From positions 196,190 through 260,189 of the forward strand of contig CAZSKK010000001.1 in assembly GCA_964607415.1 (NCBI GenBank): a stretch of DNA of 64,000 nucleotides. Reading direction: 5' to 3'. Positions 2,158 to 53,000 of the stretch are shown piece after piece. The notes beneath the pieces are model-generated. The model worked only from the letters and a program-made list of their open reading frames with translations. It searched no databases and was not told the origin of the DNA. The stretch is from an uncultured Candidatus Saccharibacteria bacterium. GTDB lineage: Bacteria > Patescibacteriota > Dojkabacteria > J137. Each line of letters begins with the position of its first letter. Position 1 is the first letter of the stretch. The position numbers and the translations under genes are program-made.

Positions 2158-2264
2158 TTTTAAATTCTAAGCACTAAATTCTAAACAAATTCTAAATTTT
2201 TAAATCCCAAACTATAGACTTTTGTATTTGGGCATTTTATATTTTACTTCAAGTTTGCAATGTA

Positions 2265-2708
2265 CTAAATATTTAAAGCTCTTTGCAAAACATTCTTATG
2301 ATCAAATGCTAATTCAATTGATTTTAATTCCTCTTTGGCAATCCATTTAGCTTCCAAAGTTTCGTTTGCGATAGTAACAACTGGAAGCTCTTCTTTATCA
2401 CCAAGTTCAAGAAGAAATGCGATTGAAATAATACGTTTCCTTGGATCTCTACCTACTTTACCAAAAACACCTATTTCTTTTATGTTTTTTATTGCATCTT
2501 GGATATTTGTTTCTTCTCTAAGCTCTCGTTCTGCTGCCACTTCTAACTCTTCATCGGGCTTAATAAAGCCACCAGGTAATGCCCACTTGTCTTTGAAAGG
2601 CTCATATTGCCTTTTAATAAAGAGAATGTAATCAATATTTTTTACAGTTACTTTGCAAACTGCGTCAACAGCGATTTTTATTTCCTGGGTGGGTTCTATA
2701 TATTTCAT
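2265..2708 (-). CDS. Nudix hydrolase
   Basis: Nudix box GGFIKPDEELEVAAERELREETNI matches Gx5Ex7REUxEExGU. Confidence 0.75.
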   Translation of the reverse strand: MKYIEPTQEIKIAVDAVCKVTVKNIDYILFIKRQYEPFKDKWALPGGFIKPDEELEVAAERELREETNIQDAIKNIKEIGVFGKVGRDPRKRIISIAFLLELGDKEELPVVTIANETLEAKWIAKEELKSIELAFDHKNVLQRALNI

Positions 2709-3832
2709 TTTGTAGTCAATTTATTTAATCTATATCCTTTTCCATAAATAGTTTGTATATCTATATTGAACCCTAAATCAATAATCTTTTTTCTAAGTCT
2801 GGCTATTCTTTGATCTAAAGCCCATTCTGAGTATTTATTTTTAAACTCATCTTTCCATATTATTTTACCTATATCTTCTTTTTTTACAACAGAATGAGTT
2901 TTTAATAATGTTTCAATAATCTCTCTTTCCTTTACATTAAGTAAGTTCAGGTCAAGACCAGTAAGTTTATTCTCTTCCGTAAGATCAATATTTTTAAAGA
3001 TTATTATATTTTCTATTAGATCTTTTATTACCGGAATATTAATTTGGTTATCTTTTATAAATCCAACATTTTTATAATTCTCAAGAATTTCATTTTCTTC
3101 CACAGAAAGTTCAATTTGTTTGTTAATTTTTTTAAAAACGTTTAAAGCTTTCTCGTCAAAGTTTTCAATTAGAAGTTTTGCATACCGTTCGAAAGAATCT
3201 GTTTTCGCAATTTCGTCCTGAATTTTTCTTTTAGTTAACCCAAAATGCCCGTTTGTTAAAGTTTTACTCTCTAAAATCTTTTCCAAGCTAATCTCTGTAT
3301 GATATTGATTACTTAAAGTATCTCTTAACGACTCAACCGACCAATCCATTTCAATTTTTTGATAAATTATTCCTTCGAAGACTATGGATGCAGGATTTAC
3401 TTTATTCTTAATTTTATTTAAAAACATAGGATCTTCAGCCAAAAATACAAACTTTAACTTTCCTCTGTATTTTCTGTAAAAGCTATCGGCAATTTCAATT
3501 GCTTTTTCTGGTTCTTTTAGAAGAGCTAGATCATCCAAAATACATACAGTTTCTATGTTATGGCTAATAGTTTCATAAACATTATCACCAGGAAATTCGT
3601 CTCTAATCAGTCTTTCATTGATTCCGTTTTCAATATACAAGGGATCTAAAACAGGTAATGAATTAAGGGCAATATGAATAAATGAATATGTAGGGTCGTA
3701 ACCATTAGATTGTTGTGTTCCTTTTAAGAGCTTATCAAAAAGGTAATATAGTCCATCATCTGCAAAACCAATCACAGTTGGATTTATTCCCATGTTTAGG
3801 TAACTGATGACTTTTTCTTTCAAAAAATTCAT
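2705..3832 (-). CDS. Transcriptional regulator with C-terminal OmpR/CadC-type winged helix
   Basis: C-terminus ...ARLRKKIIDLGFNIDIQTIYGKGYRLN is the OmpR/PhoB wHTH signature. The N-terminal 280 aa are unassigned. Start overlaps the Nudix gene stop. Confidence 0.5.
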   Translation of the reverse strand: MNFLKEKVISYLNMGINPTVIGFADDGLYYLFDKLLKGTQQSNGYDPTYSFIHIALNSLPVLDPLYIENGINERLIRDEFPGDNVYETISHNIETVCILDDLALLKEPEKAIEIADSFYRKYRGKLKFVFLAEDPMFLNKIKNKVNPASIVFEGIIYQKIEMDWSVESLRDTLSNQYHTEISLEKILESKTLTNGHFGLTKRKIQDEIAKTDSFERYAKLLIENFDEKALNVFKKINKQIELSVEENEILENYKNVGFIKDNQINIPVIKDLIENIIIFKNIDLTEENKLTGLDLNLLNVKEREIIETLLKTHSVVKKEDIGKIIWKDEFKNKYSEWALDQRIARLRKKIIDLGFNIDIQTIYGKGYRLNKLTTK

Positions 3833-4128
3833 AATTTAGTTTTAGTTTATTAGTTAATTAGTTTTAAAACAAGTAAACCAATTAACTGTCAACAAATTAA
3901 CATGCTTATTATACCTCCAAACGCCTTTCTAGTCTAAGTTGTCAGAATTTAGTAACTTTCTGACAAGATTCGTCAAGTTTGAAGTAGCTTTAGAAGCGAT
4001 AATTCTTTAATCAATTAGTTTATTACGTTAAATCCTAAAATCTTATGCTAATGCATAAAAAATTAAGATTTGGTCAAAATTGATTTATCAATTAGGGAGT
4101 TTTTATATTATTTTTTAATTAATTATTT

Positions 4129-5175
4129 ATGTCAAGCGTTTACCCACAACAACATGGTGATGAAGAATTTTCTTCAATCACAGAAAATATCGAGTTGGCA
4201 GGCGCCCAAGATCATGTGCGCCTACTGTTATTGGTAAGTTCTTTGCATGAAAGTGCTGCTCAATTAGGCCAAGATGATTGGTTCAAAGCACAAACTAAAG
4301 ATGGAAAAAGAAATAGAGTCCCTTATTCATCCAGAAGTCCAGTTACGCTTACGCTTGACGGGCAAACTGTAGGAAAGGAAGGACACCAAGGATTAATGTC
4401 TTATGAGACAATGAAAACTATTGCACATAGCCCTGATACGGTGACTAGAGAAGCATTAAAAGAAATGCTAACAAAGGATTTTCAGGCGGTTGGCTATAAT
4501 CTGGATTTTTCATATTTAGATTCTATTACAGAAGAACAATTTAAGGCCTGGATGCAAGATGTTGCAACAAAAAGAATCCATGATAACGATGCCTGGGGAA
4601 AAACTGCTACAGGTTTTCTGGAAGCGCAAGGTATCAATATTTTAAAGTTAAAATCAGGAGAATTGACAGTTGAGCAAGTTCAAATGATTTTTGATTTAAA
4701 AAAAGGGATAAATTCTATTTGGAATCCTAAAACTACTAGTGAATTTAGAACTTTGCTACAAAACAATGTTGCTTTAAAGGTGGCAATGGTTACAGCTCAC
4801 TCCAACTGGCGAAAATCAAAATACACTCAAGACGAAAACTATCAAAATTTTTCTATTGAGAATTCAATAAATGAAGCTAAATCAGCCTTAACTAGAGCTG
4901 ATATTGAACTCGAAGCGATCGAAAGCCAAATAAATAGTGTTCGTGAAGGTGCGCATAAATCGCCAACTATTAGTCCTGAGATAAGTTTTGAGCTAATGCT
5001 AAAGCTATGCGATATGTTGGAAGAGGTAGCTTCGAAACACGAAGATGTGATAACAAGAGCAAGGATCCTTAATCAAAGAGACAAGCTTTTGGATACAATA
5101 AGATACGATGCAAACACTGCGATTACGGATTCTGTTATACAAATGGGTAATTTAAAAGATCAAACAGAAAGTTAA
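4129..5175 (+). CDS. Hypothetical protein, coiled-coil rich, encoded in a GC-richer islet
   Basis: 348-aa ORF. Local GC is about 42% against a roughly 30% background. Followed by a strong GC-rich hairpin terminator. Confidence 0.5.
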   Translation: MSSVYPQQHGDEEFSSITENIELAGAQDHVRLLLLVSSLHESAAQLGQDDWFKAQTKDGKRNRVPYSSRSPVTLTLDGQTVGKEGHQGLMSYETMKTIAHSPDTVTREALKEMLTKDFQAVGYNLDFSYLDSITEEQFKAWMQDVATKRIHDNDAWGKTATGFLEAQGINILKLKSGELTVEQVQMIFDLKKGINSIWNPKTTSEFRTLLQNNVALKVAMVTAHSNWRKSKYTQDENYQNFSIENSINEAKSALTRADIELEAIESQINSVREGAHKSPTISPEISFELMLKLCDMLEEVASKHEDVITRARILNQRDKLLDTIRYDANTAITDSVIQMGNLKDQTES

Positions 5176-5185
5176 GTTTTTAAAA

Positions 5186-5220
5186 GGCGGGTTTTAGGTT
5201 TACCTAAAACCCGCTAAATA
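5186..5220 (+). terminator. Rho-independent terminator
   Basis: GGCGGGTTTTAGGT-TT-ACCTAAAACCCGC hairpin followed by TAAATATT. Confidence 0.6.
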
Positions 5221-5304
5221 TTCAACGCTCACTACTAACCCGCTTCTTTCTTTTGATGACAAATCACACTCTACCTAGTATAATTGCTTAAAACGTAACA
5301 ACAT

Positions 5305-6171
5305 ATGGATAAGTTACTATCTTCAATAAAAACCTTAGCAACTCCCAAAAACGTTGCAGTACTTTCCTTGGGATCTTTTCTTTTATTAATGAGTTTTTTA
5401 ACTCCTTTAATTGGAATTCCTCTTTTATTTGATTACAAAATAGATATTAATCCAGAAATTAAGTTCGATAAAAGTATTTTAGAATGTCTAACTCAAAGTG
5501 ATGTTCTAACAACAGCAATTACTGAACCACAAAAAAGTGATTTTTATTCAGATGAAACAATAAATCTGACTGGTGAATATTTGTTTAAATGTAGTAAAAC
5601 CAGTTTAGAAAATGTAAAGCTTTCTTGGTTGTTAAATGATGAAAAAGAACCATTTTCAAAAGACAAAACTGCTTCACTTTCTAATTTAAAAGCCGGAAAT
5701 TACAAAGTTACTTTTAAAGTTAACGGTACTTCGGAAACAGGAAAAGTTATTGAAAATAGTGAATCAAAAGATTTTGTAATTACAGATAGACCAGCACCTA
5801 CGCCAGTATATGTTCCACCAGTAAATCCACCAGCTCATGTAAATCAAGGACCAAGTGTAAGTATAGTGTCACCTAAATTTACGCCAACACCATACAATCA
5901 AGGTCAAACTGTAAGATTTGCAGGAATAGGAACCGATCCAGAAGATGGAAATCTGTCAGGTGCATCTTTGCAGTGGAGCTATGTGTTAAGTTATAACGGA
6001 ATTGACGATCCAGAAGTAAATTTTGGGTCTGGAACATCAGCTAGTTTAAATTTAACATTGCCACCAGCAGTTTACTTTGCAACCTATACGGTGTCTTTAA
6101 GAGCAACCGATTCTAACGGCGCAACTGCGCAAACAAGCTTAGTTTTAAATGTCGGTTATATTTTGTATTAA
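5305..6171 (+). CDS. Secreted or membrane-anchored beta-sandwich (Ig/PKD-like) protein with Pro-rich linker
   Basis: N-terminal hydrophobic anchor VAVLSLGSFLLLMSFLTPLIGIPLL. Linker PAPTPVYVPPVNPPAH. Two Ig-like segments. The stop TAA overlaps the next ATG (TAATG). Confidence 0.5.
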   Translation: MDKLLSSIKTLATPKNVAVLSLGSFLLLMSFLTPLIGIPLLFDYKIDINPEIKFDKSILECLTQSDVLTTAITEPQKSDFYSDETINLTGEYLFKCSKTSLENVKLSWLLNDEKEPFSKDKTASLSNLKAGNYKVTFKVNGTSETGKVIENSESKDFVITDRPAPTPVYVPPVNPPAHVNQGPSVSIVSPKFTPTPYNQGQTVRFAGIGTDPEDGNLSGASLQWSYVLSYNGIDDPEVNFGSGTSASLNLTLPPAVYFATYTVSLRATDSNGATAQTSLVLNVGYILY

Positions 6172-7202
6172 TGAAAAAAGTAAAATTAATCGCAACAATA
6201 ATTTTTGTTCTTGCACTACTTCTCGTTAGCTTAGGGGCTTTGTATTTATATTTATTCCAAAAATCAGACAAATTTTTACTTGTAAAAGAGAGCGGTGCTG
6301 TTTTTTACAAATTACCAAATGAAATTGAATATTCTGAATTAACTTTGGATGAAAGAGAATTCCCAGCTGGGACCTATATAAAAACAGATGTTTTAAGCTA
6401 TGCAAGAGTATTTTTGCCAGATAATTCTTTAATTTCAATTGATGAAAAAACGGAACTTCAAATTAATTACAACAGTAATAAAGTTTCAATTAAACAGTTT
6501 ATAGGCAAAACCTGGAATAGAGTTGAATCATTAAGCAAAGGCCAGGAGTTTGAGGTTGAAACTCCAAATACTATAGCAGCGGTTCGAGGGACGATTTTTG
6601 GGGTTGGAGTTGATAATGATCAACTCTCAAGAGTATTTGTTGAAGAACATACAGTTGATGTTTCCAGATTTAACGAGTCTGAAATTCTCGAAACTCAAGA
6701 TTTAGATGAAAGTGATATTGCTCAAATTATTAAAGACGAAACTCAATACAAAATTTTAAAAGAAAAAATAGGTGACGATCTGAGAAACTCATTATGGTAT
6801 AAAAGAAACAAGCTTGTTGATGAAGAATATAAAAAGCTTAAGCAACGAAGATTTGTTTTAGACTTTAGAAAAACATTAAAGGATAATTTAGAAAAACGAT
6901 CTGAGTTTAACGAATATAGGTTGGGGTTAAAATCAAATCTTTCTAGAGAAAAAATTGAAGATCAATTAACTAACGTCTATGATATTTCAAAAATTTCTGA
7001 AAAAACTTGTACAAGTTATACCTCTGTAAGCATTCAAGATGCTATAAATAAAGTTAGATATTATAGAAATTATATTAATAAAGCAGATCAAATCGAATCT
7101 TTGTTATCTAATTTAAAAGAAACTTGTTCGGATTCCGAAATGACTTTAAATGAAGCAATAGAGCTTGAAAAGCAAGTGAATCAAATAAACTCATCTAACT
7201 AA
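6171..7202 (+). CDS. FecR-domain protein, membrane anchored
   Basis: N-terminal TM segment. Motif AAVRGTIFGVGVD is the FecR (PF04773) core. Confidence 0.6.
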   Translation: MKKVKLIATIIFVLALLLVSLGALYLYLFQKSDKFLLVKESGAVFYKLPNEIEYSELTLDEREFPAGTYIKTDVLSYARVFLPDNSLISIDEKTELQINYNSNKVSIKQFIGKTWNRVESLSKGQEFEVETPNTIAAVRGTIFGVGVDNDQLSRVFVEEHTVDVSRFNESEILETQDLDESDIAQIIKDETQYKILKEKIGDDLRNSLWYKRNKLVDEEYKKLKQRRFVLDFRKTLKDNLEKRSEFNEYRLGLKSNLSREKIEDQLTNVYDISKISEKTCTSYTSVSIQDAINKVRYYRNYINKADQIESLLSNLKETCSDSEMTLNEAIELEKQVNQINSSN

Positions 7203-7208
7203 ATTCTA

Positions 7209-9149
7209 ATGAAATCTAAAATTATTTCTCTTTTAGTGTTTGTTATTGTTAACGCTGTAGTTTTTTTACTCCTTCAAGCTAATTTTGTTGGTGGAATTAA
7301 TAATCTTTATTCAGATACTCTTCAAGGTTCAATTGATGCAAGGCAGGAAATTGTAATTGTAGGTATTGATGACAAAAGCTTGCAACAAATTGGAAGTTGG
7401 CCTTGGGATCGCTCAGTGTTTGCTGAGGCCTTAAAAAAAATAGATTCGTCTAACCCTTCTGTGGTAGGTGTTGATGTCTTATTTTTAGAGTCCAGAAATG
7501 GTGATACACAAGTTGAAGATTTTTTAATTGACTCAAAAGCACAGGTTGTTATGGGTAGTAAGCTAGTGGATGAGCAGGTATTTGTTAGTGTTTATGATAC
7601 TAGGTCTGGTTTTGTAAACTTTGACCCTGATCCAGATGGGAAAATTCGTTCAGCACAAATGTATAGAGAAATCGATGGGAAATGCATGTCAAGCTTTTCG
7701 GTAGAGATTGTAAGCATTTATTTTGGAATTAACGATAAGTTTTACTGTGATGAAAACTTAAAGTTAAGAACCAGAGTTTATGATTTATCAAAGAATAATA
7801 CTTTAAGATTTGCATATACTAATGAAGACTTTGAAGTAATCTCGTTTTCTAACCTTTTAGATTCTAATTATAACTACAATTTTAAAGATAAAATTGTGTT
7901 GATTGGCTCAACTGCCCTTGATTTAAGAACAAATTTAAACGATAACTTTACAGATATTTTTGGTAATAGTATTCCTGGAATTGAAATTCATGCAAACATA
8001 ATAAACAGTTTTCTAAATGAAACTTTTTACACTACTCTTAATTGGGAACAGACTTTGGCGATTTTTTTAATTGTGAATACACTCCTTATAGCACTGAGTT
8101 TTAAAATTAAAAAAATCGCCTTTATAACTTTTATATTTCTTGCATTTATATTAATAACATTCGCATTAAGTCTTTTATTAGCTCAATTGAAAACTTTGCT
8201 TCCATTAATTTCAATTTTGGTAGGGCTTATTACTAATTATTTGATTATTCTTTTATACAAATATTTAACTCAATCAAAAGAAACAAAATTTATTAAAAAT
8301 GTATTTTCAAGATATTTGAATGAAAATTTGCTTAAAGTGTTGCTGGAGGACAGCTCAAAATTAAAACTGGGAGGTGAAGAACGAAACATGACGGTAATGT
8401 TTTCTGATATCAGAAGCTTTACTACAATTTCTGAAGGGCTAACGCCAACTGAATTAATCAATTTAGTTAATGATTATCTTAGTTTTATGTCAGATATTAT
8501 CCTCAACAATAATGGGACTATAGATAAATACATAGGGGACGCGATTATGGCTTTGTGGAATGCACCAATAAATGATGACAATCATTCTGTTAATGCTGTT
8601 AAAACAGCAATTGCAATGAAAGAAAGCTTAGACTTATTTAAAAAAACTTATCCTAATTATCCGGAAATTAATATTGGTATTGGAATAAATACTGGTCAAA
8701 TGACTGCAGGAAATGTTGGTGGTGAAAAGCGTTTTGACTATACTGTTTTAGGGGATAATGTAAATTTAGCCTCAAGACTTGAGGGTTTAACAAAAAAATA
8801 TGGTGTGACAACGATTGTAACAGAATCGGCGAAGAATGATTTTAAGACAAAAAGTAAAGAAACTAACATAGGTTTCAGACTTTTAGATGAGGTTATTGTA
8901 AAAGGTAAGAGCAATAGCATAAAGATTTTTGAGCCTTTTAAAAATAGCGATGATAAGTCGTCTAAGCTAATAAATGCTTACGAAGAAGCATTTATGCTTT
9001 ATCAAAAAGGTGATTTTGCAAAAGCTTTAGAAATTTTGAAGGAGAATAGAGATGATAAACCATCACAACTTCTAATTGAACGAATAAACTCCTTAAGTAA
9101 AGATCAGAAAACAAAATGGAGCGGCGTTTGGAAATGGGAAGATAAGTAG
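7209..9149 (+). CDS. CHASE2 sensor-domain adenylate/guanylate cyclase (class III)
   Basis: N-terminal TM, then an extracytoplasmic domain of about 270 aa, then three TM helices. Cyclase core is MTVMFSDIRSFTTISEGL...DKYIGDAIMALWNAP. C-terminal TPR-like tail. Confidence 0.75.
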   Translation: MKSKIISLLVFVIVNAVVFLLLQANFVGGINNLYSDTLQGSIDARQEIVIVGIDDKSLQQIGSWPWDRSVFAEALKKIDSSNPSVVGVDVLFLESRNGDTQVEDFLIDSKAQVVMGSKLVDEQVFVSVYDTRSGFVNFDPDPDGKIRSAQMYREIDGKCMSSFSVEIVSIYFGINDKFYCDENLKLRTRVYDLSKNNTLRFAYTNEDFEVISFSNLLDSNYNYNFKDKIVLIGSTALDLRTNLNDNFTDIFGNSIPGIEIHANIINSFLNETFYTTLNWEQTLAIFLIVNTLLIALSFKIKKIAFITFIFLAFILITFALSLLLAQLKTLLPLISILVGLITNYLIILLYKYLTQSKETKFIKNVFSRYLNENLLKVLLEDSSKLKLGGEERNMTVMFSDIRSFTTISEGLTPTELINLVNDYLSFMSDIILNNNGTIDKYIGDAIMALWNAPINDDNHSVNAVKTAIAMKESLDLFKKTYPNYPEINIGIGINTGQMTAGNVGGEKRFDYTVLGDNVNLASRLEGLTKKYGVTTIVTESAKNDFKTKSKETNIGFRLLDEVIVKGKSNSIKIFEPFKNSDDKSSKLINAYEEAFMLYQKGDFAKALEILKENRDDKPSQLLIERINSLSKDQKTKWSGVWKWEDK

Positions 9150-16534: not shown

Positions 16535-16774
16535 ATGGCTTATTACGTTTATATACTAAAATGTTCAGATGATTCTTTATATACTGGCATTACCAATGAT
16601 TTAGATAACAGACTTTTAATGCATAAGTTAGGTAAAGGTTCCAAGTATGTTAGGTCGAGACTTCCATTTAAAATTGTATATAAAGAAGAATTAAAAACTA
16701 AGTCTGAAGCTTTAAAAAGAGAGATTCAGATTAAGAAGATGAATAAAAATGCAAAAATAAAGCTTTTACAATAA
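16535..16774 (+). CDS. Small GIY-YIG nuclease-domain protein (second paralog)
   Basis: MAYYVYILKCSDDSLYTGITNDLDNRLLMHKLGKG... is the same family as the 11234..11503 gene. Confidence 0.7.
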   Translation: MAYYVYILKCSDDSLYTGITNDLDNRLLMHKLGKGSKYVRSRLPFKIVYKEELKTKSEALKREIQIKKMNKNAKIKLLQ

Positions 16775-16778
16775 TATT

Positions 16779-19076
16779 TTATGCCTTCTGAATTCTTGAA
16801 ATTTTATCAACACAAATTTTAAGAGTTAGACCTAAAAGATAAATTACCTCGTCCGAAATAAAGTCTTTAGGTTCAAGCAATCCATGTGCAAGTTTATTCC
16901 TTAATCCATATTGATCCGAAACAAGTAGTAGCTCGAGTTGATTAATTTCATCTTCACCAATTAATTGCTCAAGCTCTACTCTATAAGTTGTAATAAGTTT
17001 TCCAAGCGTAAAATCATCCTGAACATCGTCAATTAACATGGCTGTAATTTCACCATTTTCTTCTAAGATATCTCTTAATGACTCTTCCAACTGAGGTATT
17101 AGAAAGTGCATAGCCTCAAGAGGTTTACCTGAAAGGGTTGCATGTAATCCTCTAAACCAAAGAATCGTTTGAGCTTCAGGTACAAAGTTACTTGAAGTCA
17201 AAATTGTATATTGAAAAAGTTTGTTTATTTCTTTTGCTAATTCCTGAGAATTAGCTATTTCAACAAGACTACCAAGTATCAAATTTCTATTGTGGATTAT
17301 ACCAGTACTTGGTTGAACTTTATTGGCTAACCCAACAAGGGTTTTATGAATAGACTGAGTTTCAACCAATTGTTGACCTTCTTTAAACTCGGCGTTATTT
17401 TGATCTATTTGTGAATCATGGATTGAGCTAAGATTTTGTAGTTGAAGTACATTAGTTCCAAACTTTCGCGTACTAATCTCTGCCATTTTCATTATAAGCA
17501 TTGACAAATAGAGCCCATCTACATTTGTAAAAGGCAGTTGTTGATCTGCAATTAATCCATGCATAATATTATTTCGTAGATTGGAACCAAATCTCTCAAC
17601 AAGTAGGCATCTTAAATTGAAGTATAGATCCTCACCAAAAATGTCAATTAAAGCTATTTTTGTTTCTTCCTGGTAAAGAAATTGATCGAGCTTATAGCTT
17701 TCTTGGATTTCTTCTGTTGTTAAATTAGGTGGAATTGTTCCATTTAAAACTAATGCATGCCTTAAAGACTGTTCAACTTGCGGAATTAGTAAGTGAATAC
17801 CTTTTGCATAATCTCCGTTTAAAATTGCATCTAAACCTACTTTAAAAATTTCTTGTCTATTTGCTGGAATAAACTTACTTTCTATTACAAAGTCAGGAAT
17901 TTCGATTAAACCTTCTTGCTCTTTTCGCAAAGCTTCTAGTGCTCCGTAAAATAAGACTGCATGCTCAGTTTGTTTAACTCTTGCTCTGTAAAAAACATGG
18001 TGGTTTAAACCATCTTCTGGAGTACCAACACCTTTATATTTATCATCTTTATCAATTACTATTGCAGGTATTGCACGCTCAAGTGGCGATAGTGTTGCTT
18101 CTAAATCTATAGATTTAGGTAGAAAATCCAACTGCATTAAATCGATCAATAAAGCGTCAATTGCCTTTCCTCTACCTAATGCATTACCTTCATTGAATAT
18201 TTTATCAACTGCATCTTGATCGTACGATTGTGGCCTTAGCTTTAGAAAGTCATTAGTAAAAAATCTTCCTCTGTCAGGAAGTTTTGCAGCTTCTTTTTGA
18301 TAGCTTAAAATTAACTTATTAAAGGCCTTGATTTCTGGTCTGAAAGTACCGATATTTCTAATTAAGGGTGGTCTTGCTGATGTATCAGTTAATCTACCTA
18401 ATGCGATTTCAGCTTCAAGCAGGGCTTCATTATGGTTTAAATACCCTTTTTTTAATCCTTCATTTATATATTCTGTGCCACGTATATTAACTGAATTTAA
18501 AAAAGCTTGCCTTGCGCTAATCTCATCTGAATTGAGCATATGAATCTGAGCTTTAATTTCGAAGTATTCACTTTTTCTGATAAAAAGCATAGCTCTAATA
18601 CGTACATCAGAACTAGTATCTAATAGTTCGTTGAATTCTAGTATTTTTGCTTCAATTATAGGTAAATAAGTTGAAGGATCGCATTCATTAAAATCAATAA
18701 GATGTTGAATCAAATTTTTTTGATAAATAATTTCTGCAATATCTAATGTAGGGAAAACTTTTGAATTTATTCTTTGAACTTCACTCTTTATATATGATAT
18801 GGATTGAGTATATATAGGATTATTTTTACCTAACTGCAAGGATATTTTGCATGCTCTGGACGCTCTTTGTAGGGAAAATTCGTAAAGCTGTTGTCGCTTT
18901 GCAGGAGATTTTATTGCTTTGTCTCTTAATTCCTGAGCACTTAAAATATAATTTTCTGCTGCACTTTTAGTAAATGGATAAAGATTTCTTACATCTTGCA
19001 TTGTAAGTTTGTATCTTAGTAAATCGTGAACTATTGCAGCTAGTTCTGGATTTTTAACTGGAAGAATGCTATTCAA
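16779..19076 (-). CDS. Large protein with two tandem C-terminal repeats each carrying an Rx4HG (HEPN-like) motif; possibly DUF4209-related
   Basis: Repeats: HLLIPQVEQSLRHAL...SNLRNNIMHG and HFLIPQLEESLRDIL...GLRNKLAHG. The track start is TTG. The frame stays open upstream to 19361 with no canonical start. Confidence 0.55.
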   Translation of the reverse strand: MNSILPVKNPELAAIVHDLLRYKLTMQDVRNLYPFTKSAAENYILSAQELRDKAIKSPAKRQQLYEFSLQRASRACKISLQLGKNNPIYTQSISYIKSEVQRINSKVFPTLDIAEIIYQKNLIQHLIDFNECDPSTYLPIIEAKILEFNELLDTSSDVRIRAMLFIRKSEYFEIKAQIHMLNSDEISARQAFLNSVNIRGTEYINEGLKKGYLNHNEALLEAEIALGRLTDTSARPPLIRNIGTFRPEIKAFNKLILSYQKEAAKLPDRGRFFTNDFLKLRPQSYDQDAVDKIFNEGNALGRGKAIDALLIDLMQLDFLPKSIDLEATLSPLERAIPAIVIDKDDKYKGVGTPEDGLNHHVFYRARVKQTEHAVLFYGALEALRKEQEGLIEIPDFVIESKFIPANRQEIFKVGLDAILNGDYAKGIHLLIPQVEQSLRHALVLNGTIPPNLTTEEIQESYKLDQFLYQEETKIALIDIFGEDLYFNLRCLLVERFGSNLRNNIMHGLIADQQLPFTNVDGLYLSMLIMKMAEISTRKFGTNVLQLQNLSSIHDSQIDQNNAEFKEGQQLVETQSIHKTLVGLANKVQPSTGIIHNRNLILGSLVEIANSQELAKEINKLFQYTILTSSNFVPEAQTILWFRGLHATLSGKPLEAMHFLIPQLEESLRDILEENGEITAMLIDDVQDDFTLGKLITTYRVELEQLIGEDEINQLELLLVSDQYGLRNKLAHGLLEPKDFISDEVIYLLGLTLKICVDKISRIQKA

Positions 19077-19399
19077 AATAACATCAATATGCTGCTGCTC
19101 AATAGGTTTTATTCGTTCTGGTTCAGATTCTTTTTTCCAATCAGGAATACCATAAAGATCAGATTTAATGCTACATATATAACTTAAAAGAAAAAACTGA
19201 TTTGCAAGTTCATGATTGCCTTGTTCATTTAACTTTCTGGCAACCTTATCAAATTCCCAATAATAATCGTCTGATAATTTCTCTTCAAGAGTATTTATGA
19301 AGTCATCTATAGATGAAGGTTGTGGGTTCTCGGTATCGCTTATATTAAAGATATCAAAAAATTACAGAACTGATTTTACCATATCAAGCTTAAATTGCT

Positions 19400-44076: not shown

Positions 44077-47000
44077 TTAAAGTTTTGTGTGGCTATAACT
44101 AGCAACTGCACCACCACCTGCCTCATAATATTCAACTCTTACTGTATGTTCTCCTGCTGTCATTGTTCGGTTAACATCATAGTTTGTTCCTCCATGATCA
44201 GTCCAGAAATCTATAACCAAAACATCGTCGACATAGACCCTTATACCATCATCACTGTAGGTGTGAAATCTATATGTTCCAGCATCAAAGTTAAACTTAC
44301 CATACCATTTTGCAGAAAAATTATCAGTTGCTACTCCATTACCAGGCCCACCTCCGCCCCAGTCAAGATGAAAGCTGGATGCGTTAATGGAAGTACTGTA
44401 TGTCAACATTTGTGCCCATGGAGTAGTTGTTCCATTATAGTACTCTGCGCAGAATTGACCTGTCGGCAAGTTGCAAACTGGTGTGCTGTTGTTTCTCCAT
44501 ACAAGTTTCGAAATAGCTCCACCACCCTTTTCATAAAACTCCATTCTGATTTTATGAGAACCTGCTGGCAAAGTTATATATCCATAATCATATGTGCTTC
44601 CATGGTCTGTCCAGTTATTAATAATTAGTGTATCATTTACCCAAAGTCTGACACCATCATCAGTTAAAGTTCTAAATGTGTATGCTCCAGCAGTTAAAGT
44701 GTAATAACCTTCCCATCTAACAGAAAAATTATCGTTGCTTATTCCATTACCTGGTCCACCTCCGCCCCAGTCGTAGTTAATACTTCCTGTACAATTTGTA
44801 TATATTACATTTGCACTTAAGGTAGTATTATAGTAATAAGAACCTCTAAAGTTATTTTCTGCGCAGTAACCTGCTCTAACAGCAACCTGATTTTCAGCAA
44901 ATAACCCTCCGCTATCAGTTACCCTAAAGGTTAAATTTTCTACTCCATACCAGCTTGAAGGATAGGATATTGTAGCTGTATCACCTATAAATGAAACTTG
45001 GATATTTGTATTTCCACTTACGCTCCAGGTCGAAGTATCACCTACGTCTGGATCTGATCTATAGCTTGCAAGATTAACCTGTTTTGAATATTGGCTGAAT
45101 AAAAGTGATTGATCAGGAATATCTTGTAGTACTGGTGCATGATTTACATTATTTACCTGAAATAGTGCTGAATCGCTGTCTGATAAATTCCCAGAATCAG
45201 TTGCAGTAAATGTGATTGTTTCGCTTCCCGTCCAGTTTGCGGGATAAGTTACAGTAGCTACATTCTCTTGATTAATTGAAACTGTAAGATTTGTATTTCC
45301 AGAATTTGACCACGTTACTGTATCATTAGGATCCATTACATAATTATCAAGATCAAATGTTGTAAAATTTGAACCTGCATCAATTACTTGATCTAGAATA
45401 TCAGAAACTACTGGAGCACTATTTAATTGAGTAACTGTAAAAATTACATCCTTTGATGTGGACAAGTTTGTGCTGTCGGTAGCAATAAATGTAATGGTCT
45501 CTGCCCCCAACCAGTTCTGAGGATATGTAATAGTCACAACTTTATCCGAATCCATAGCTACGTTTAAGCTTGATTGACCCGAATATGACCACGTTATGGT
45601 GTCGTTAGGATTAATATCTGTCACATAATCATCCAAATCAAATAGTTGAAAATTTTCACTACCTGATATTGTCTGTCCTTGCAAGCCTTGAATTACTGGA
45701 GGTTCATTTGTAGCTATTGCTAAATTTGTAAGTATTTTTGCATTGCCATCCAGTTCTAAATATTCAACTTTTATATTGTGAAATCCTGGTGTCAAGCTTA
45801 CAAAAGAATTTATTACTGATGGTCCAGTGTACCATTCATCCAGTATAAGTGTGTTATCAATCCAAACTTTAGCACCATCGTCAAAATCTATGTTGTAAAT
45901 ATATGTACCTGCTTCAGAGATTTGAACAAAGCCATCAAATCTTACAGAAAAGTTATTTGTAACTCCTGGATTTGGGCAAGAAAAGGTGCTAACCACTTGC
46001 GCCAAAGTTACCTCTCCAGTTAAAGATTCGCATGTCAAAACTTTTATGTACCCATTGCCACCAATTCCTCCAGCACCTGCAGGAGAACCACCGCTACTTC
46101 CTCCTAATCCACCATTGGCTTGTACAAGATTGGATCCAATATCCATGATATTTGCTTTTAGAATGACAGTTCCTCCAGCTCCTGCACCACCACCACCAGA
46201 TCTTCCATAAATATTTTCTGGTGGAGGGTTATTATATGACCCATTACCACCATCGGTACCTTTTGCCACGACTACACCAGAGCTAGAAATGTTTAACTTA
46301 TATGCCTCAATAATAATTATTCCACCTCCATTTCCACCTGTACCTCCAAGGTTTGAGTAAGCTCTTCCTCCTCCACCTCCAGCACCACCAAGTAATGCTT
46401 TATTTACATCAGGATTAGTTACTGCACTTCCAGCAATGCCTGGTGGATTAGCTCCCCCGTTGGCACCATTTGCTCCTGCTGTAGCATTTCCACCACCTGC
46501 GCCACCTGGACCACCTTCTAATGCATTGGTTCCACCTCCACCACCATTTGCATTGTTATACCATTGGTTTATTATTTGACCATTTATGCTTTCACCAGTT
46601 TTTCCATAAGAGCTTAAATCGCTTACTCCACCTCTATATCCTTTTCCGTTTACATCAACTATTCCATTAATTAATATTTGATCTCTAACTTTAAATGCCA
46701 TTACACCTCCCGTTGATCCATCCCATGGATGTACAGTTAATGTTCCATTTACTGTAAGATTGTTGTATTCATTAACTTTTAGTAGTTGAACTTTATTATT
46801 TGTATCAGCTGTATAGCTATTTATTATTCCGGATTCTAAGGTTAAAGTATTGCCGGCAATATTTGTAATTTTCCCAAATTCATACGTTCCCGTTCCAGAT
46901 CCTTGCATTTGAATTATCAAAATCTCATTACCAATTGCGAATCCTGCTGAATTTGAAACTGAGACTTGGCTTGCACCAGCATTTAGTGTAGTTGTAACAC

Positions 47001-50000
47001 TCGTTCTAATGTCATCGGTATAGCTTGTTACACCTGAAGCTACAGTTAAATCGCCATCAGTTCCATTACCGGGTCTTTGCATTGCTGGAAAGCCTTCTGG
47101 CCCACCGCTACCCCAATCATAGTTAACGCCCGGAACACAGTTTACAAATGAAGGGTCTCCGCTCAGTCCAGTATTATTGAAGAACTCAGCATTATATTCA
47201 CCTTCATTACAAAGACCTCCCGCAAAAGTTGCCGTATCTTCAACAAATTCATTGTCTTCATCGGTAATTCGGAATGTTATATTTTCTGATCCCAACCAAT
47301 TAGCTGGCTTAGTTATTGTTACAATATTTCCTGCGTCTATATTCACGGTAAGCTCAGTGTTTCCAGTATAAGACCAACTAACCTGTTGATAGGTATTAGG
47401 ATCTGATCCAAAGTTATCTAAATCAAAGCTCTCAAATTCGTTATTCACTCCAACCAGTTGATTAGGAATATCAGAAATGGTTGGTGGGGTATTCTCGATT
47501 TCTATAATATTCATATCTATTTCTGCAGTTAAATCGTTCTCAAAGTATTCAACTTTAAGCGTATGTGTCCCAGCTAAGATTTCCGAAACTTCGCTAATGG
47601 TTTTGGCTCCATTGGTCCATTCATCTATAATTAAGTTTTGATCTAACCAAACTCTTACACCATCATCAACATTCAAGTTAAATTGGTAGGTTCCTGTGGT
47701 GAACTCTTGTGACTTTTCCCATCTTGCTGAGAATGTATCTATTTCGCAAGCGGCTTGAGTTTGATTTAAAGTTGGGCTGGTTGTTCCTGTTGTGCTATTA
47801 CAGTATTGAATTGCAATTCGTCCAACACCTCCTGCACCACCAGGTCTATTACCTCCACCTACTCCACCCAAAGCTACTACTTTATTTGTACCCAAATTTG
47901 CGTTTTCAACCTCTAACTTTATAGAACCACCAGCTCCAGCCCCTCCTCCAAAGTGAGTTGCATGAATTCCACCATCATTCCCACGAGATGTTATTTGTCC
48001 GTTTACAGTTAAAGTTTTAGCTGCAATACCAATAATTCCACCACCATTTCCTCCTGCTTGTCCATTTTCCATTCCTCCTCCACCTGAAGCTGCTGCTCCT
48101 CCTCCGCCACCAAAATTCAGCTTAGATAGGTCAGCTGTTCCTACTGCATTACCTCCTTGAGAACTGTTAGAATGTCCTCCAAGTCCGGCTGTTCCATTAC
48201 CTCCTCCAGCACCGCCATTGTTGTCAGGTTCTCTACCACCACCACCACCATTTGTAGTAGCAACATTTGTCCTTGCACTAGCTAGAGGCATAGAAGCTTC
48301 GCCTGCATATCCATAATGTGGTCCTTGCGGTGCATTGGTTTGTGCTCCTCCTCTGAATCCTTTTCCTTGTGCAGATATTGTTCCATTTACAGTTATGGTG
48401 CCATTAGCATAAAAGTATAGAATACCACCAACTGCACCGTTCCATGCCTTAGCTGAAAGAGTAGCACCATTATTGATAGTAACGTTTGAATATTGCTTTA
48501 TTACCAAAACTTGTGCAATATTCCCTGCTCCATCAGTAGCATAACTAATATTTAAAGGATCTTTTACAGTTATAGTTCCTGGAGAATAAGCTACAATCTC
48601 ATTTATTTGATAAGTACCATAGTTAGTTCCAATTGTTTGATGTATTAAGATTTTTTGTCCAGTTGCAAAGTTTGGATTTGTAGAATAAAGAGTTGTTGTT
48701 CCTTGCAATCCCGATGTTTGAGCATCAATTGGATTATCTATTGTATCTGTGCTTATTATCAACTCTCCATCTTGTCCATTCCCAAACTTATCAGATGAAA
48801 CTGGCCCACCTGCACCCCAGTTATGCGTAAGAGCACTCTCACACCCAATAACTTCAGGAGTACCTTGCAATGTTGTATTATTGTAATATTGAGTTTTAAA
48901 TTCACCAATATTACACTCCAAAACTTCATATCTTACTGTTTGGGAATTTTTTGCACCCCATGAATCTTCAGCTTCAAAAGTAATATTTTCAACCCCAAAC
49001 CAACCTACAGGATAAGTAATTGTAACTATATTATCTTGATCTTTTTGAACAGAAAGTGAAGAGTTCCCAGTATACGACCACGTGATAGGATCGTTATCTG
49101 CATCTGATCCAAATGTATCTAGATCAAAAGTTGCGAATTGTGTTGTTTGCCCTATGGTTTGATTTTGAATTCCACTTACAATTGGTGCATTATTTGTGAA
49201 TGGGTATATTGCAAGATCAATATCTGCAGCACCAGTTGAATCAAAATATTCAACCTTAATGTCGTGATAGCCTTGAGTTAAAGTTAACTCAGCTTGAGTA
49301 TCAGTTTGGCCTATAATCCAACTATCTATAAGAATGTTGTTGTCAACCCATAGTCTAACACCATCATCAGACTGTAAAGTGAATGCATAGCTTCCAGCAT
49401 TAAAGTATTGAATCTTATTCCATCTTGCAGAGAAATTATCTTTAGCACAAGATGTTATTGTGTTTGGGTTACTAGTTACACTTCCAGTTACACTGTTACA
49501 AGTATATGTCATTATTCTGCCTGAACCTCCTACACCACCATTTCCTGCTCCATTAGCACCTGCTCCCCCTCCGGCTCCACCAGCATGTAAAACAGAGTTT
49601 GAAGTAAAGTTTTTGGCTCTAAGTTTAATTGAACCTCCTGAACCACCACCACCACCTCCACAATTACTGCTAGAATTACCACCTGCTATTCCATTGACAT
49701 TAACTGTTCCATCTACTGTAAGATTACCTGTAATTTCCATTAATAATGCTCCCCCACCTGCTCCCCCTTCACAACCTCCAGGGTTTGGTGGATCTTTTGC
49801 TCTACCACCTGCTCCCCCTCCAGAACCTAAGTAAAGTTCATCAACAAGAGCCGTTCCGTAAGTTGCACCTGCACTTCCTCCTGCGGCACCGCTAACCGAA
49901 ACGCCATTTGCTCCAACGGTTGCATATGAACCACCACCTCCTCCTCCACCAACATCTGGACCTCTTCTACCTCCTCCACCAGAACCTGCTCCACCATTTA

Positions 50001-53000
50001 GCGCACCAGATGGTGAAGGACCTTCGTTTCCCCAGGTATGTATCCATGGGATTTGCCCTCCTGTATAAGATTCACCGCTTTGACCTGTAACTGCATCATC
50101 ATCACCTTCTTCGTTTCTGTATGGTTTACCACCTCTAAAGCCTTTACCTGATAATTCTATCGTACCTGTTGAGGAAACATTTGCATTATTTGCTTTTATT
50201 GCAAGGATACCTCCAACATCACCATTCCATGCATTTATAGTAAGTGTTCCTTGAATAGTAATTTGGCCGTATTTTTCAATCTTTATAACTTGAGCCTTGT
50301 TATTCGTTCCAACCGTATATGTATTTGTTAAATTTGTTCTTAAAGTCAAACTATTTGATGTTATTGAATCAATTCTTGCATATTCATATTTACCTGCATT
50401 TGTTCCCATCATTTGAATTACTAAGACTTCATCATTAACTGCAAAACCTGATGTACTTGATACGGTAATTGCACTCTGACCGCTATTTGCAGTTGCTGTA
50501 ATCTTACTTTCAACTGTATTTGCTGTATATGTTGTATTTGCGGCAACATTTAAGTCTGGAAGGCTTGAATCAATAGGGCCTTCATTTCCCCAATCATGAG
50601 TTACACTAGGTTCACAGATGCTGAATTCTGCTTCACCTTGTAAATTGTTATTTAGAAAGTACTCTCCTTTGTACTGATCTAGATTACAAGGTGTTACTTT
50701 AAATATTGCAGTATCGGTATCAAATCGATTATAAATATCAACTGCCTTAAAAGTTAGTGTTTCTTCACCCGACCATCCTTGTGGTTTAGCAATTGAAACA
50801 ATATTTTCGGAATCCTTAGATACAATTAGGTTTACGTTTCCAGTAATTTCCCATGTTACAGGATCATTATTTGGATCAGTTACTAAAGTATCTAGGTCAA
50901 ATGTTGCAAAAGTATCATTTATACCTATTAATTGATCAGTAATGTCGCTTACTACTGGAGCTTCATTAGTTGAAGGAGAAACACTAAATAAAATGTTAGC
51001 GTTTTCTGTTGCTTCAAAGTATTCAACTTTAAGATTATGCAATCCTTCGGTAAGAGTAACTTCCACTTGGTTTTCATTAACCCCTGAGTTCCAATCGTCA
51101 ATTACAATATTATTATCAATCCAAGCTCTAATTCCATCATCAGATTGGCTGGATATAAAGTAATTGCCAGCTACGAAGCTATCAGTTTTGCTCCACCTTG
51201 CAGAAAAATTATCTTTTGCACAAGAAGTTTGAGTATTTGGTGTGGTTGTTATGTTCCCTGTCAGTTCGTTGCAGCTGTAAGTCATTACTCTTCCAGCTCC
51301 TCCATTTCCTCCATTCCCCCCACCGTTGCCTGTGCCTCCCACTCCACCATTTACATAAATAGTAGAGTTTGAAATAAAGTTTTTAGAAATAAGCTTAACA
51401 GATCCTCCAGCACCTCCTCCGCCTCCTCCACAATTATTATGACTACTTCCTCCACCAATTCCATTTGAGTTCATTGCACCGTCAAGTGTGAATGTTTCTG
51501 CTGCTTCAATCAATATAACACCTCCACCTACTCCACCATCACAGTAAATTGGATGAGGTGGATCCTTTGCTCTACCACCTGCTCCCCCTCCAGAACCCAA
51601 GTAAAGTTCGTCAACAAGTACATTTCCATGTACTGTTCCTGCACTTCCGCCAGCAGCTCCACTTGAAGTTATGCCGTTTGTGCCAGCTGTACCGTATGAA
51701 CCACCACCACCGCCTCCTCCTGTATCAGGACCTCTTCTACCTCCTCCACCAGAACCTGCTCCTCCATTTAGCGCACCTGATGGTGAAGGACCTTCTCCAC
51801 CCCAAGTATGGATCCAAGGAATTTGGCTACCTGTGTAAGATTCACCGCTTTGACCTGTAGCCGAATCATCCTCTCCTAGTTCATTTCTGTAAACTTTACC
51901 ACCTCTAAACCCTTTTCCAGATAATTCTATATTTCCAGTTGATGAAACGTTTACATTATTTGCTTTTATTGCAAGGATACCTCCAATATCACCGTTCCAT
52001 GCGTCAACTGTAAGTGTTCCGTCAACATTTACTTGATCGTATTTTTCAACTTTTATAACCTGTGCTTTATTGTTTGTACCCACTGTATAAGTATTTGTTA
52101 GATTTGTTGTGAGAGCCAAATCAGTAGCTGTTAGTGATGCAATTCGTGCGTATTCGTACTTACCGGCATTGGTCCCCATCATTTGAATAACTAAAACTTC
52201 GTCATCGATTGCAAATCCACCGGTATTTACTAGGGACACAATATTTTGTGCTCCTGTTGCTGTTGTTGTTAGTTTTGATTTAACATAATTTGCAACATGA
52301 GTTGTATTTTGTGTAACTGTAAGATCAGGCTGTGCAAGATCAGTAGGTCCCTCTAAAGACCAGTTATGATTTACATTTTGCTCACACTCTCTAAATGCTG
52401 GGCTTCCTTGTAGGTTATTATTAAAATAGTATTCGGTTTCATAAGCCCCTGCAGTACAATCAATACTGATTAGATGTGTGTCTGAAACAGTGCTACTTGC
52501 ATTTGAAACAGTAACACTGATTTGTTTTTCACCATAATCAAAGAATTTGTATGTTGCTGTTGCAGTGCCTTGGCCGGATTGTGGTGTAGGTATCCAATTG
52601 TAATTTATTGGAACTGTTGCATTGCCAGGATTAAAGCCTGCATTAAAAATATAATCAGTTTCTACTGTTCCAGAAACTGCTCCAGTTATTGTTACATCGG
52701 TTAGAGTAATATCCTGGACTCTAAAGCTCCAAGTTGGGCTCCAGCTTCCTTCCCCAAAATCATTCCAAGATTTAACTCTCCAATAATATGGATTTACAGA
52801 TGGAGTTAAGTCAGTTTTTGTCCAGTATGTTAATGTATTTATGCCCCTTCTTATTGGTTGGGATAAGTTGCCTCCCGACAATTCGATATCATAGTCATAC
52901 CCATTTCCAAACCATTGCATTGTTACAGTGCTTCCTGTTGGATATAGAGTTCCGTTAGAAGGTATAACATTTGTTGGTGCTAATGGTGCTGGTGGACATG

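Follow-up and report, generated by a model that had tools for sequence, protein, structure and literature searches.

In the HEPN fold four helices form an up-down bundle, helices 2 and 3 are separated by an insert, and the Rx4H motif leads into the last helix. The signatures of catalytic members are an upstream Ex3[KR] and an Rx4-6H motif whose arginine is directly followed by a polar residue, namely N, D or H (PMC3710099). HEPN active sites are built by dimers, HEPN defence proteins cleave tRNA, and Cas13 is counted among the HEPN nucleases (10.64898/2026.02.22.705581). One HEPN family, C6orf70 (ERMARD)/DUF4209, was predicted to be catalytically active, fused to tetratricopeptide repeats (TPR) and located in operons related to restriction-modification (R-M) systems of bacteria (PMC3710099). 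PDC-S39, a protein of about 600 amino acids (aa) composed of DUF7380 and DUF4209, belongs to the PDC set of 145 predicted phage-defence candidates, whose genes were recognised by their position inside loci of the BREX, DISARM and type I R-M systems (10.1101/2024.01.29.577857). In a stretch of 64,000 nucleotides from an uncultured Candidatus Saccharibacteria bacterium (contig CAZSKK010000001.1, positions 196,190 to 260,189; the whole stretch is called the window below), we found a gene at 16779..19361 on the minus strand that is a rare tandem-HEPN variant of this known defence-candidate family and no new kind of system. The family identity and the tandem-HEPN architecture are assigned with high confidence, while RNase function, an intramolecular active site, a defence role and a non-canonical start are each less certain than that.

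The protein matched the PADLOC model PDLC05011 of PDC-S39 with an E-value of 3.3e-92 (residues 11-619 aligned with positions 11-570 of the 595-position profile) and the second PDC-S39 model, PDLC05012, with 2.8e-54; PADLOC returned no other model at E up to 0.1. The Pfam domain DUF7380 (PF24098) was detected at E 7e-7, or 3.8e-8 when the fragment was scanned alone, covering profile positions 10-175 of 177. DUF4209 (PF13910) scored 60.7 bits in the whole protein, and 41.6 and 26.9 bits in repeats 1 and 2 scanned alone, the Pfam gathering threshold being 22.3 bits. An original prediction, made from the nucleotide letters of the window, had proposed a candidate toxin or defence RNase with two HEPN-type motifs; the whole-protein match to a defence candidate supports the first part, and the profile search placed both motifs in DUF4209 copies above the Pfam cutoff. 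The layout of the gene is given below, with the evidence for each part, including the ratio of nonsynonymous to synonymous substitution (dN/dS).

16779..19361, minus strand: full tandem-HEPN frame (translation, PDC-S39, Pfam DUF7380 and two DUF4209 stretches, dN/dS).
18810..19328, minus strand: DUF7380 N-terminal helical domain, residues 12-184 (Pfam PF24098, AlphaFold2 helices).
17910..18809, minus strand: middle all-helical (TPR/solenoid-like) region, residues 185-484 (AlphaFold2; aligns with the single-HEPN family).
17457..17909, minus strand: HEPN domain 1 (DUF4209), residues 485-635 (Pfam, invariant residues, dN/dS 0.07).
17250..17456, minus strand: helical linker, residues 636-704 (AlphaFold2 helices).
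16782..17249, minus strand: HEPN domain 2 (DUF4209 duplicate), residues 705-860 (Pfam, homology to domain 1, dN/dS 0.07).

The gene shares with PDC-S39 the N-terminal DUF7380, the helical body, a HEPN domain with invariant PQxExxxR and NxRNxxxHG, and the lack of a conserved partner gene. It differs from the typical PDC-S39 architecture, which has one C-terminal HEPN domain, in that the 860-aa protein adds a linker and a second complete HEPN domain, and also in having no canonical start codon; PDC-S39 is itself a prediction, of which a literature search found incidental mentions only. With C6orf70/ERMARD it has in common that both repeats pass the Pfam threshold, that Rx4H is conserved, that a TPR-like region is fused and that the bacterial members are R-M-associated. 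The eukaryotic prototype is a membrane-anchored protein of the endoplasmic reticulum with one HEPN domain, whereas the tandem protein is prokaryotic and soluble and has two; no transmembrane segment was evident in the all-helical AlphaFold2 model, though no formal search for such segments was made.

The two C-terminal repeats were homologous, with 33% identity over 134 aa (BLASTP, E 2e-16). In domain 1 the Ex3R motif lies in HLLIPQVEQSLR at 17795-17760 (E530-QSL-R534) and the Rx4H motif is RNNIMHG at 17576-17556 (R596-N-N-I-M-H601-G); in domain 2 the corresponding motifs are HFLIPQLEESLR at 17108-17073 (E759-ESL-R763) and RNKLAHG at 16901-16881 (R821-N-K-L-A-H826-G). The repeats had first been described as about 100 aa long and as ending in the motif. 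We found them to be about 135-150 aa, and the motif stands about 35-40 residues before the end of each and is followed by the last helix.

When 1.84 billion cluster representatives were searched exhaustively with phmmer, 2,848 relatives were returned at E up to 1e-3, and among the matches listed nearly all were about 600 aa with one C-terminal HEPN domain. Both domains were spanned only by P0001 (this gene), P0002 (72% identity; contig L006, at an unrelated locus), P0003 (40%) and P0004 (31%; contig L011). The RNxxxHG motif was carried by 146 of the 151 relatives and near-relatives retrieved, once in 142 of them and twice in P0001-P0004 only. Tandem members were absent from the GTDB species representatives and from the JGI metagenome and IMG/VR contigs, where only single-HEPN relatives were found, and a word-indexed homologue search with a 33-sequence profile recovered just the two close relatives again. 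A separate observation concerns a Dehalococcoidia metagenome-assembled genome (CBDBNA010000005.1, contig L007), which has at 2158-6597 a 1,479-aa ORF (open reading frame) of much larger architecture ending in a DUF4209-like HEPN domain.

Residues P527, Q528, E530, R534, N594, R596, H601 and G602 of domain 1 were invariant in 33 family members, and N597 was nearly so. In domain 2, H752, P756, Q757, E759, R763, R821, N822, H826 and G827 were invariant in 4/4 tandem proteins, and the Ex3R and RNx3H motifs of both repeats were invariant in all four. The arginine and histidine on which the HEPN assignment turned are invariant across the family, so the result that the original prediction had named as refuting this assignment was not obtained. 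Compared with the L006 homologue, dN/dS was 0.07 in each HEPN domain, while the segments outside these domains gave 0.21-0.24. A neighbour-joining tree grouped the four domain-1 sequences in one cluster and the four domain-2 sequences in another, with the single-HEPN domains between them, and the linker (residues 636-704) was present only in the four tandem proteins. Because the two domains thus fall into separate clades, although the proteins are only 29-40% identical overall, the tree indicates one duplication, older than that divergence, with both sets of catalytic motifs kept since. Given the low dN/dS in each domain and the separate old clades in which both active sites are kept, both HEPN copies are maintained.

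The ORF listing gave a TTG-initiated frame at 16779..19076 on the minus strand (765 aa). The nearest in-frame stop upstream is TAA at 19364-19362, which leaves 95 extra open codons from 19361 (FFDIFNISDTENPQ...), and the full frame is composed of 860 sense codons and a TAA stop at 16781-16779. The 765-aa ORF with its TTG start and the 95 open codons up to 19361, already reported in the original prediction, were reproduced by the ORF listing and by translation. ATG, GTG and TTG do not occur among the 95 upstream codons. A stop-free run of 95 codons has a probability of about 4e-4 in non-coding DNA of the same composition, and among the 47 long open frames of the window this was the sole real gene with a start-less prefix of more than 18 codons.

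The 95 upstream codons are part of the protein. In the open frame the PDC-S39 match begins at residue 11 (profile position 11) and DUF7380 at residue 12, both inside the extension, so that a protein initiated at 19076 or 19001 would have only half of DUF7380. AlphaFold2 placed helices at residues 18-22, 30-46 and 50-64, with pLDDT (predicted local distance difference test) values of 67-85 in this block. Between the window and P0002, dN/dS was 0.21 in the extension (pN 0.29, pS 0.68, the proportions of nonsynonymous and synonymous differences) and 0.23 in the next 385 codons; along the entire gene dN/dS was 0.07-0.24, calculated with saturated synonymous sites (pS 0.53-0.78). The N-terminal region of P0002 is likewise open and contains no ATG, GTG or TTG. 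The public gene call of P0001 (NCBI and Logan) begins at ATG 19001 and gives 740 aa, 120 residues short, and its precomputed Pfam annotation lists PF13910 only, as the truncation falls inside DUF7380. As ATG, GTG and TTG are missing at the 5' end, the starts chosen by gene callers for P0001, P0002 and P0003 lose the first 39-120 residues.

A sequencing error or frameshift at 19077-19400, which had been considered together with an N-terminal extension and a rare start codon, was rejected, as 13/13 spanning public contigs were identical at the site and the L006/L010 lineage is equally start-less. The 13 contigs rule out an assembly error; almost all belong to one clone, without a mismatch in up to 11 kb, and so they are not independent lineages. 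The extension with a rare start is the alternative that held, backed by the DUF7380 inside it, its dN/dS and its predicted helices.

AlphaFold2 predicted the middle region (residues 185-484) as continuous helices, mostly with pLDDT above 85, for which Foldseek gave generic alpha-solenoid matches only, none of them significant. In the HEPN repeats the predicted order was helices 1 and 2, with Ex3R in helix 2, then a helical insert and helix 3, after which Rx4H precedes the long final helix; the linker was modelled as helices 657-668, 671-681 and 688-703. The model of residues 440-860 had a mean pLDDT of 82 and a predicted template modelling score (pTM) of 0.81, with domain 2 resting on about four sequences, as MAFFT places all single-HEPN sequences on domain 1.

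By analogy with characterized HEPN proteins, the two domains would be metal-independent endoribonucleases that use the Ex3R and RNx3H residues; HEPN activity of this type leaves 2',3'-cyclic phosphate ends. Single-HEPN relatives would homodimerise to form a bipartite site, and here the two domains of one chain would form it intramolecularly. HEPN sites are bipartite and made at dimer interfaces, therefore the two domains may well pair within one chain; the support for this pairing is indirect and comes from modelling. In Cas13, two HEPN domains form one composite RNase site in a single polypeptide. The protein resembles Cas13 in having two Rx4H HEPN domains in one polypeptide, and differs in that its domains are adjacent duplicates with no CRISPR RNA (crRNA) binding lobes between them, with no array and no evidence of an RNA guide. 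A Cas13 or CRISPR assignment was ruled out, as already proposed in the original prediction: no direct repeats of at least 20 nt were found within 9-28 kb, and no Cas model of PADLOC matched. RNase L and Ire1, whose KEN domains belong to the HEPN superfamily, also require the joining of two HEPN/KEN domains for RNase activity (PMC3710099). These are kinase-fused, ligand-induced eukaryotic dimers with one KEN domain per chain, which sets them apart from the tandem protein.

The N-terminal helical module, presumably a sensor or scaffold, would hold the nuclease off until an infection cue, and activation would lead to cleavage of cellular RNA (tRNA or mRNA, by analogy with HEPN defence proteins) and arrest of the infected cell. 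Such a sensor or inhibitor module with abortive infection by RNA cleavage is inferred from analogy with ApeA, DARNA and HEC-08. ApeA, DARNA/PD-T7-3, HEC-08 and Tha are likewise encoded by one gene that combines a HEPN RNase with a helical non-catalytic module for infection sensing (a role presumed in the tandem protein), and they act by abortive infection through tRNA or RNA cleavage, a logic that may also apply here. They belong to other HEPN families and have another domain order (in DARNA and HEC-08 the HEPN domain is N-terminal), and their sites are built by homo-oligomerisation of single HEPN domains.

The alternative that survives best is that there is no single intramolecular site, with domain 2 serving as a regulatory pseudo-partner that would block the dimer face of domain 1 until activation, or with the domains pairing in trans in a dimer or higher oligomer having at least two sites. 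HEPN effectors are often regulated by oligomerisation, as in the alternative dimers of RnlA and the dodecamer of DARNA, and a 69-residue helical linker separates the two domains. Against this stand the Ex3R and RNx3HG motifs, invariant in domain 2 of the four tandem proteins, a dN/dS as low as that of domain 1, and the pTM of 0.81 of the two-domain construct, which suggests one compact unit. A purely regulatory domain 2 is disfavoured because such a copy would be expected to lose its catalytic residues. We regard this alternative as unlikely.

The true N-terminus probably lies within the first seven codons or so of the open frame, which would give a product of 850-860 residues. The elements at the 5' end are as follows.

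19341..19343, minus strand: ATA, codon 7, favoured candidate initiation codon, inferred from the conserved AAT ATA AGC GAT.
19350..19352, minus strand: ATC, codon 4 (in L006 and L010, ATT), the other candidate for initiation, in the conserved GAT ATY.
19362..19382, minus strand: mini-frame ATG GTA AAA TCA GTT CTG TAA, 6 codons, in frame with the ORF and closed by TAA.

The in-frame ATN codons of the extension include ATC (codon 4) and ATA (codon 7). The window, L006 and L010 share TTT GAT ATY TTN AAT ATA AGC GAT ANC GAG AAC CCA CAA, and upstream of these codons the three have TATGRTAAAATCA in common, which reads as an extended -10 element. Over about 65 nt of leader and the first 13 codons nucleotide conservation was clearly above that of the rest of the gene; by our own count there was about one synonymous change in about eight synonymous sites of this stretch, compared with pS 0.53-0.78 elsewhere. 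The distant tandem homologue P0004 has its ATG aligned with residue 1 of the open frame, and single-HEPN members have their consensus N-terminus near residue 9, so that both lie a few residues from the ATA. The ATA at 19343 has an A at -3 and no secondary structure around it. No structured leader RNA was found (z-scores -1.26 and +0.98, no shared fold), and Shine-Dalgarno motifs were nearly absent from the window (1/38 gene starts). Judging from this conservation, translation probably starts at the conserved ATA 19343, which we prefer, or at ATC 19352. A weak near-cognate start of this kind would give low expression of a potentially toxic protein. In several genes of the window TATAAT stands some 7 nt ahead of the ATG, an arrangement that points to leaderless transcripts.

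The mini-frame was identical in 13/13 spanning assemblies and overlaps a TGGTAAAAT extended -10-like element at 19381-19373; its ATG, at 19382-19380, had gone unmentioned in the original prediction. In L006 and L010 the corresponding ATG is 1 nt out of frame, in a T-run; the L006 mini-frame (7792-7827), out of frame by 1 nt, ends 3 nt before the conserved ATA. The mini-frame could be what is left of an ancestral start; it could also be a short upstream ORF or simply belong to a TGNTAAAAT promoter element. Phase variation at the T-run is unlikely at the level of assemblies, as no length variation was seen in the 13 examined and T4-T6 is short for slippage. Readthrough or programmed frameshifting from the upstream ATG was judged unlikely because the mechanisms needed are inconsistent, the window requiring readthrough of TAA and L006 a -1 shift with no slippery heptamer.

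If the ancestral start was the ATG at 19382 and was lost by indels in the T-run, the gene might be silent or decaying, either untranslated (an OFF state or a young pseudogene) or translated in truncated form from TTG 19076 or ATG 19001. The first 95 codons have no ATG, GTG or TTG, the ATG seven codons upstream is in frame yet closed by TAA, and the ATG of L006 is one base out of frame within TTAATTTTG; a hypothetical ancestral CTG TTA ATT TTT GAT would link the ATG to the ORF in both lineages, and gene callers begin the protein at 19001. Nevertheless, 860 codons are still open in a genome of 31% GC, and over a divergence at which synonymous sites are saturated (pS 0.53-0.78) the extension has a dN/dS of 0.21 and each HEPN domain one of 0.07. 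The start-less state is common to two lineages, nucleotide conservation in the leader and first 13 codons exceeds that of the remainder of the gene, and the T-run length is constant in 13 assemblies, though almost all are one clone. Starts at 19076 or 19001 would moreover halve DUF7380. Loss of expression is therefore a decidedly unlikely explanation, and we retain initiation at the conserved ATA or ATC.

L006 and L010 represent two strains with tandem-HEPN alleles, which agree at about 90-95% of nucleotides from the upstream gene through the leader to codon 17. Beyond codon 17 the identity is about 55% at the nucleotide and 40% at the protein level (L006 7700-10400 against L010 1-2717). To judge from this alignment, it is allele replacement at one chromosomal site, a common occurrence in defence genes, and the breakpoint lies shortly after the gene begins.

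A housekeeping role, as an RNA-processing or stress RNase in line with the role proposed for eukaryotic C6orf70/ERMARD, would agree with the position of the gene, whose surroundings (AlkZ-like, DUF1905, ABC-F, glyoxalase/esterase) are ordinary chromosomal genes and include neither defence nor mobile genes, and with its presence at the same site in every assembly found of this organism. The distribution argues otherwise, being extremely patchy, with four tandem proteins in 1.84 billion representatives and none in the GTDB representatives or JGI metagenomes. Homologues stand at unrelated loci adjoining R-M systems: P0002 lies near a type III R-M methylase gene and a DUF559 endonuclease gene, and P0004 adjoins EcoRII, a C5 methylase, an AAA_21 ATPase and a resolvase. 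The 40% identity of the L006 and L010 alleles at the same site is typical of fast-turnover defence genes. Relatives also occur on viral contigs, and two PHROG families (about 612 aa) match the protein. At 25 loci of more distant DUF4209 relatives, mostly with single-HEPN genes of about 600 aa, the 113 flanking ORFs (picked by a simple ORF rule) gave six DNA-methylase Pfam matches, and also HsdR, SNF2, ThiF/JAB/E2, phage antiterminator Q, prohead protease and DDE transposase. A housekeeping function is thus highly doubtful, and the surroundings of the homologues give circumstantial support to a defence role.

Extremely improbable is a toxin-antitoxin pair with the upstream DUF1905 gene (19400-19684) as antitoxin, for although that gene is co-directional, ends 38 nt before the open frame and has a faint MazE_antitoxin match (E 0.064, below threshold), it is absent beside P0002, P0003 and P0004, shares an 8-nt overlap with the AlkZ-like gene, to which it is probably coupled, and has no PADLOC match, and PDC-S39 is among the PDC-S candidates of PADLOC, whose prefix we take to denote a single-gene set. 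A HEPN-MNT (HepT/MntA) toxin-antitoxin system was also rejected, as no minimal nucleotidyltransferase gene adjoins and no partner is conserved among homologues. No conserved partner or antitoxin gene was found among the homologue loci.

The GIY-YIG gene reported to converge on the 3' end is real (79 aa, 16535-16774, plus strand, Pfam E 1e-18), with 4 nt between the converging stop codons, and it is not conserved beside homologues. The intervening 16775-16778 has no terminator-like site, and the two transcripts probably overlap in antisense.

Elsewhere in the window, a tRNA-like gene at 22615-22734 on the minus strand matched the full Rfam tRNA model at 51.6 bits, with the anticodon loop CUCCAAA (CCA, Trp). 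It is 120 nt in total, with a 48-nt hairpin-forming insertion in the variable region, and was not called by ARAGORN. At 44077-57840 on the minus strand is a 4,587-aa ORF of about 36-41% GC, compared with 31% in the rest of the window. Pfam detected RHS repeats, seven PA14 domains, DUF6531 and Big_9 in it; the ORF looks like a giant Rhs/YD-type polymorphic toxin or adhesin, possibly acquired horizontally. Most of the large window proteins checked had no NCBIfam match.

Taken as a whole, we consider the gene somewhat more probably than otherwise a single-gene candidate immune or toxin effector, a HEPN RNase with an intramolecular site, a sensor module and a non-canonical start. Several points weigh against this. 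In a literature search, RNase activity, toxicity or phage protection was reported for no PDC-S39/DUF4209 member. Its neighbours in the window are DUF1905, an AlkZ-like glycosylase, GIY-YIG, a 249-aa orphan ORF and ABC-F, none of them a recognised defence gene, and the locus is no defence island. In model bacteria ATA and ATC initiate translation very poorly, and a lost start with a silent gene is possible. A more elaborate picture, which we put forward tentatively and hold to be doubtful as a whole, is that of a non-CRISPR immune effector with an independently evolved, hard-wired and pre-assembled pseudo-dimeric RNase site as in Cas13, its dose limited by a conserved AUA/AUY start in a genome nearly free of Shine-Dalgarno motifs, and its body swapped as divergent alleles behind a conserved leader (L006 and L010).

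The start-codon anomaly is real and conserved, and it has led to truncated public annotations; cloning based on these would express a protein with a broken N-terminal domain. If true, the conserved ATA/ATY start would add to the few documented examples in which a potentially toxic gene is translated from a near-cognate codon. The PDC-S39/DUF4209 family is large (2,848 representative clusters) and extends into eukaryotes (ERMARD), with a function so far predicted. The tandem members may provide a small CRISPR-free model for the origin by duplication of single-chain double-HEPN enzymes such as Cas13. As HEPN regulation works largely through dimerisation, with two subunits per site, a family with both one- and two-HEPN members would be a natural experiment on dimerisation-based HEPN regulation.

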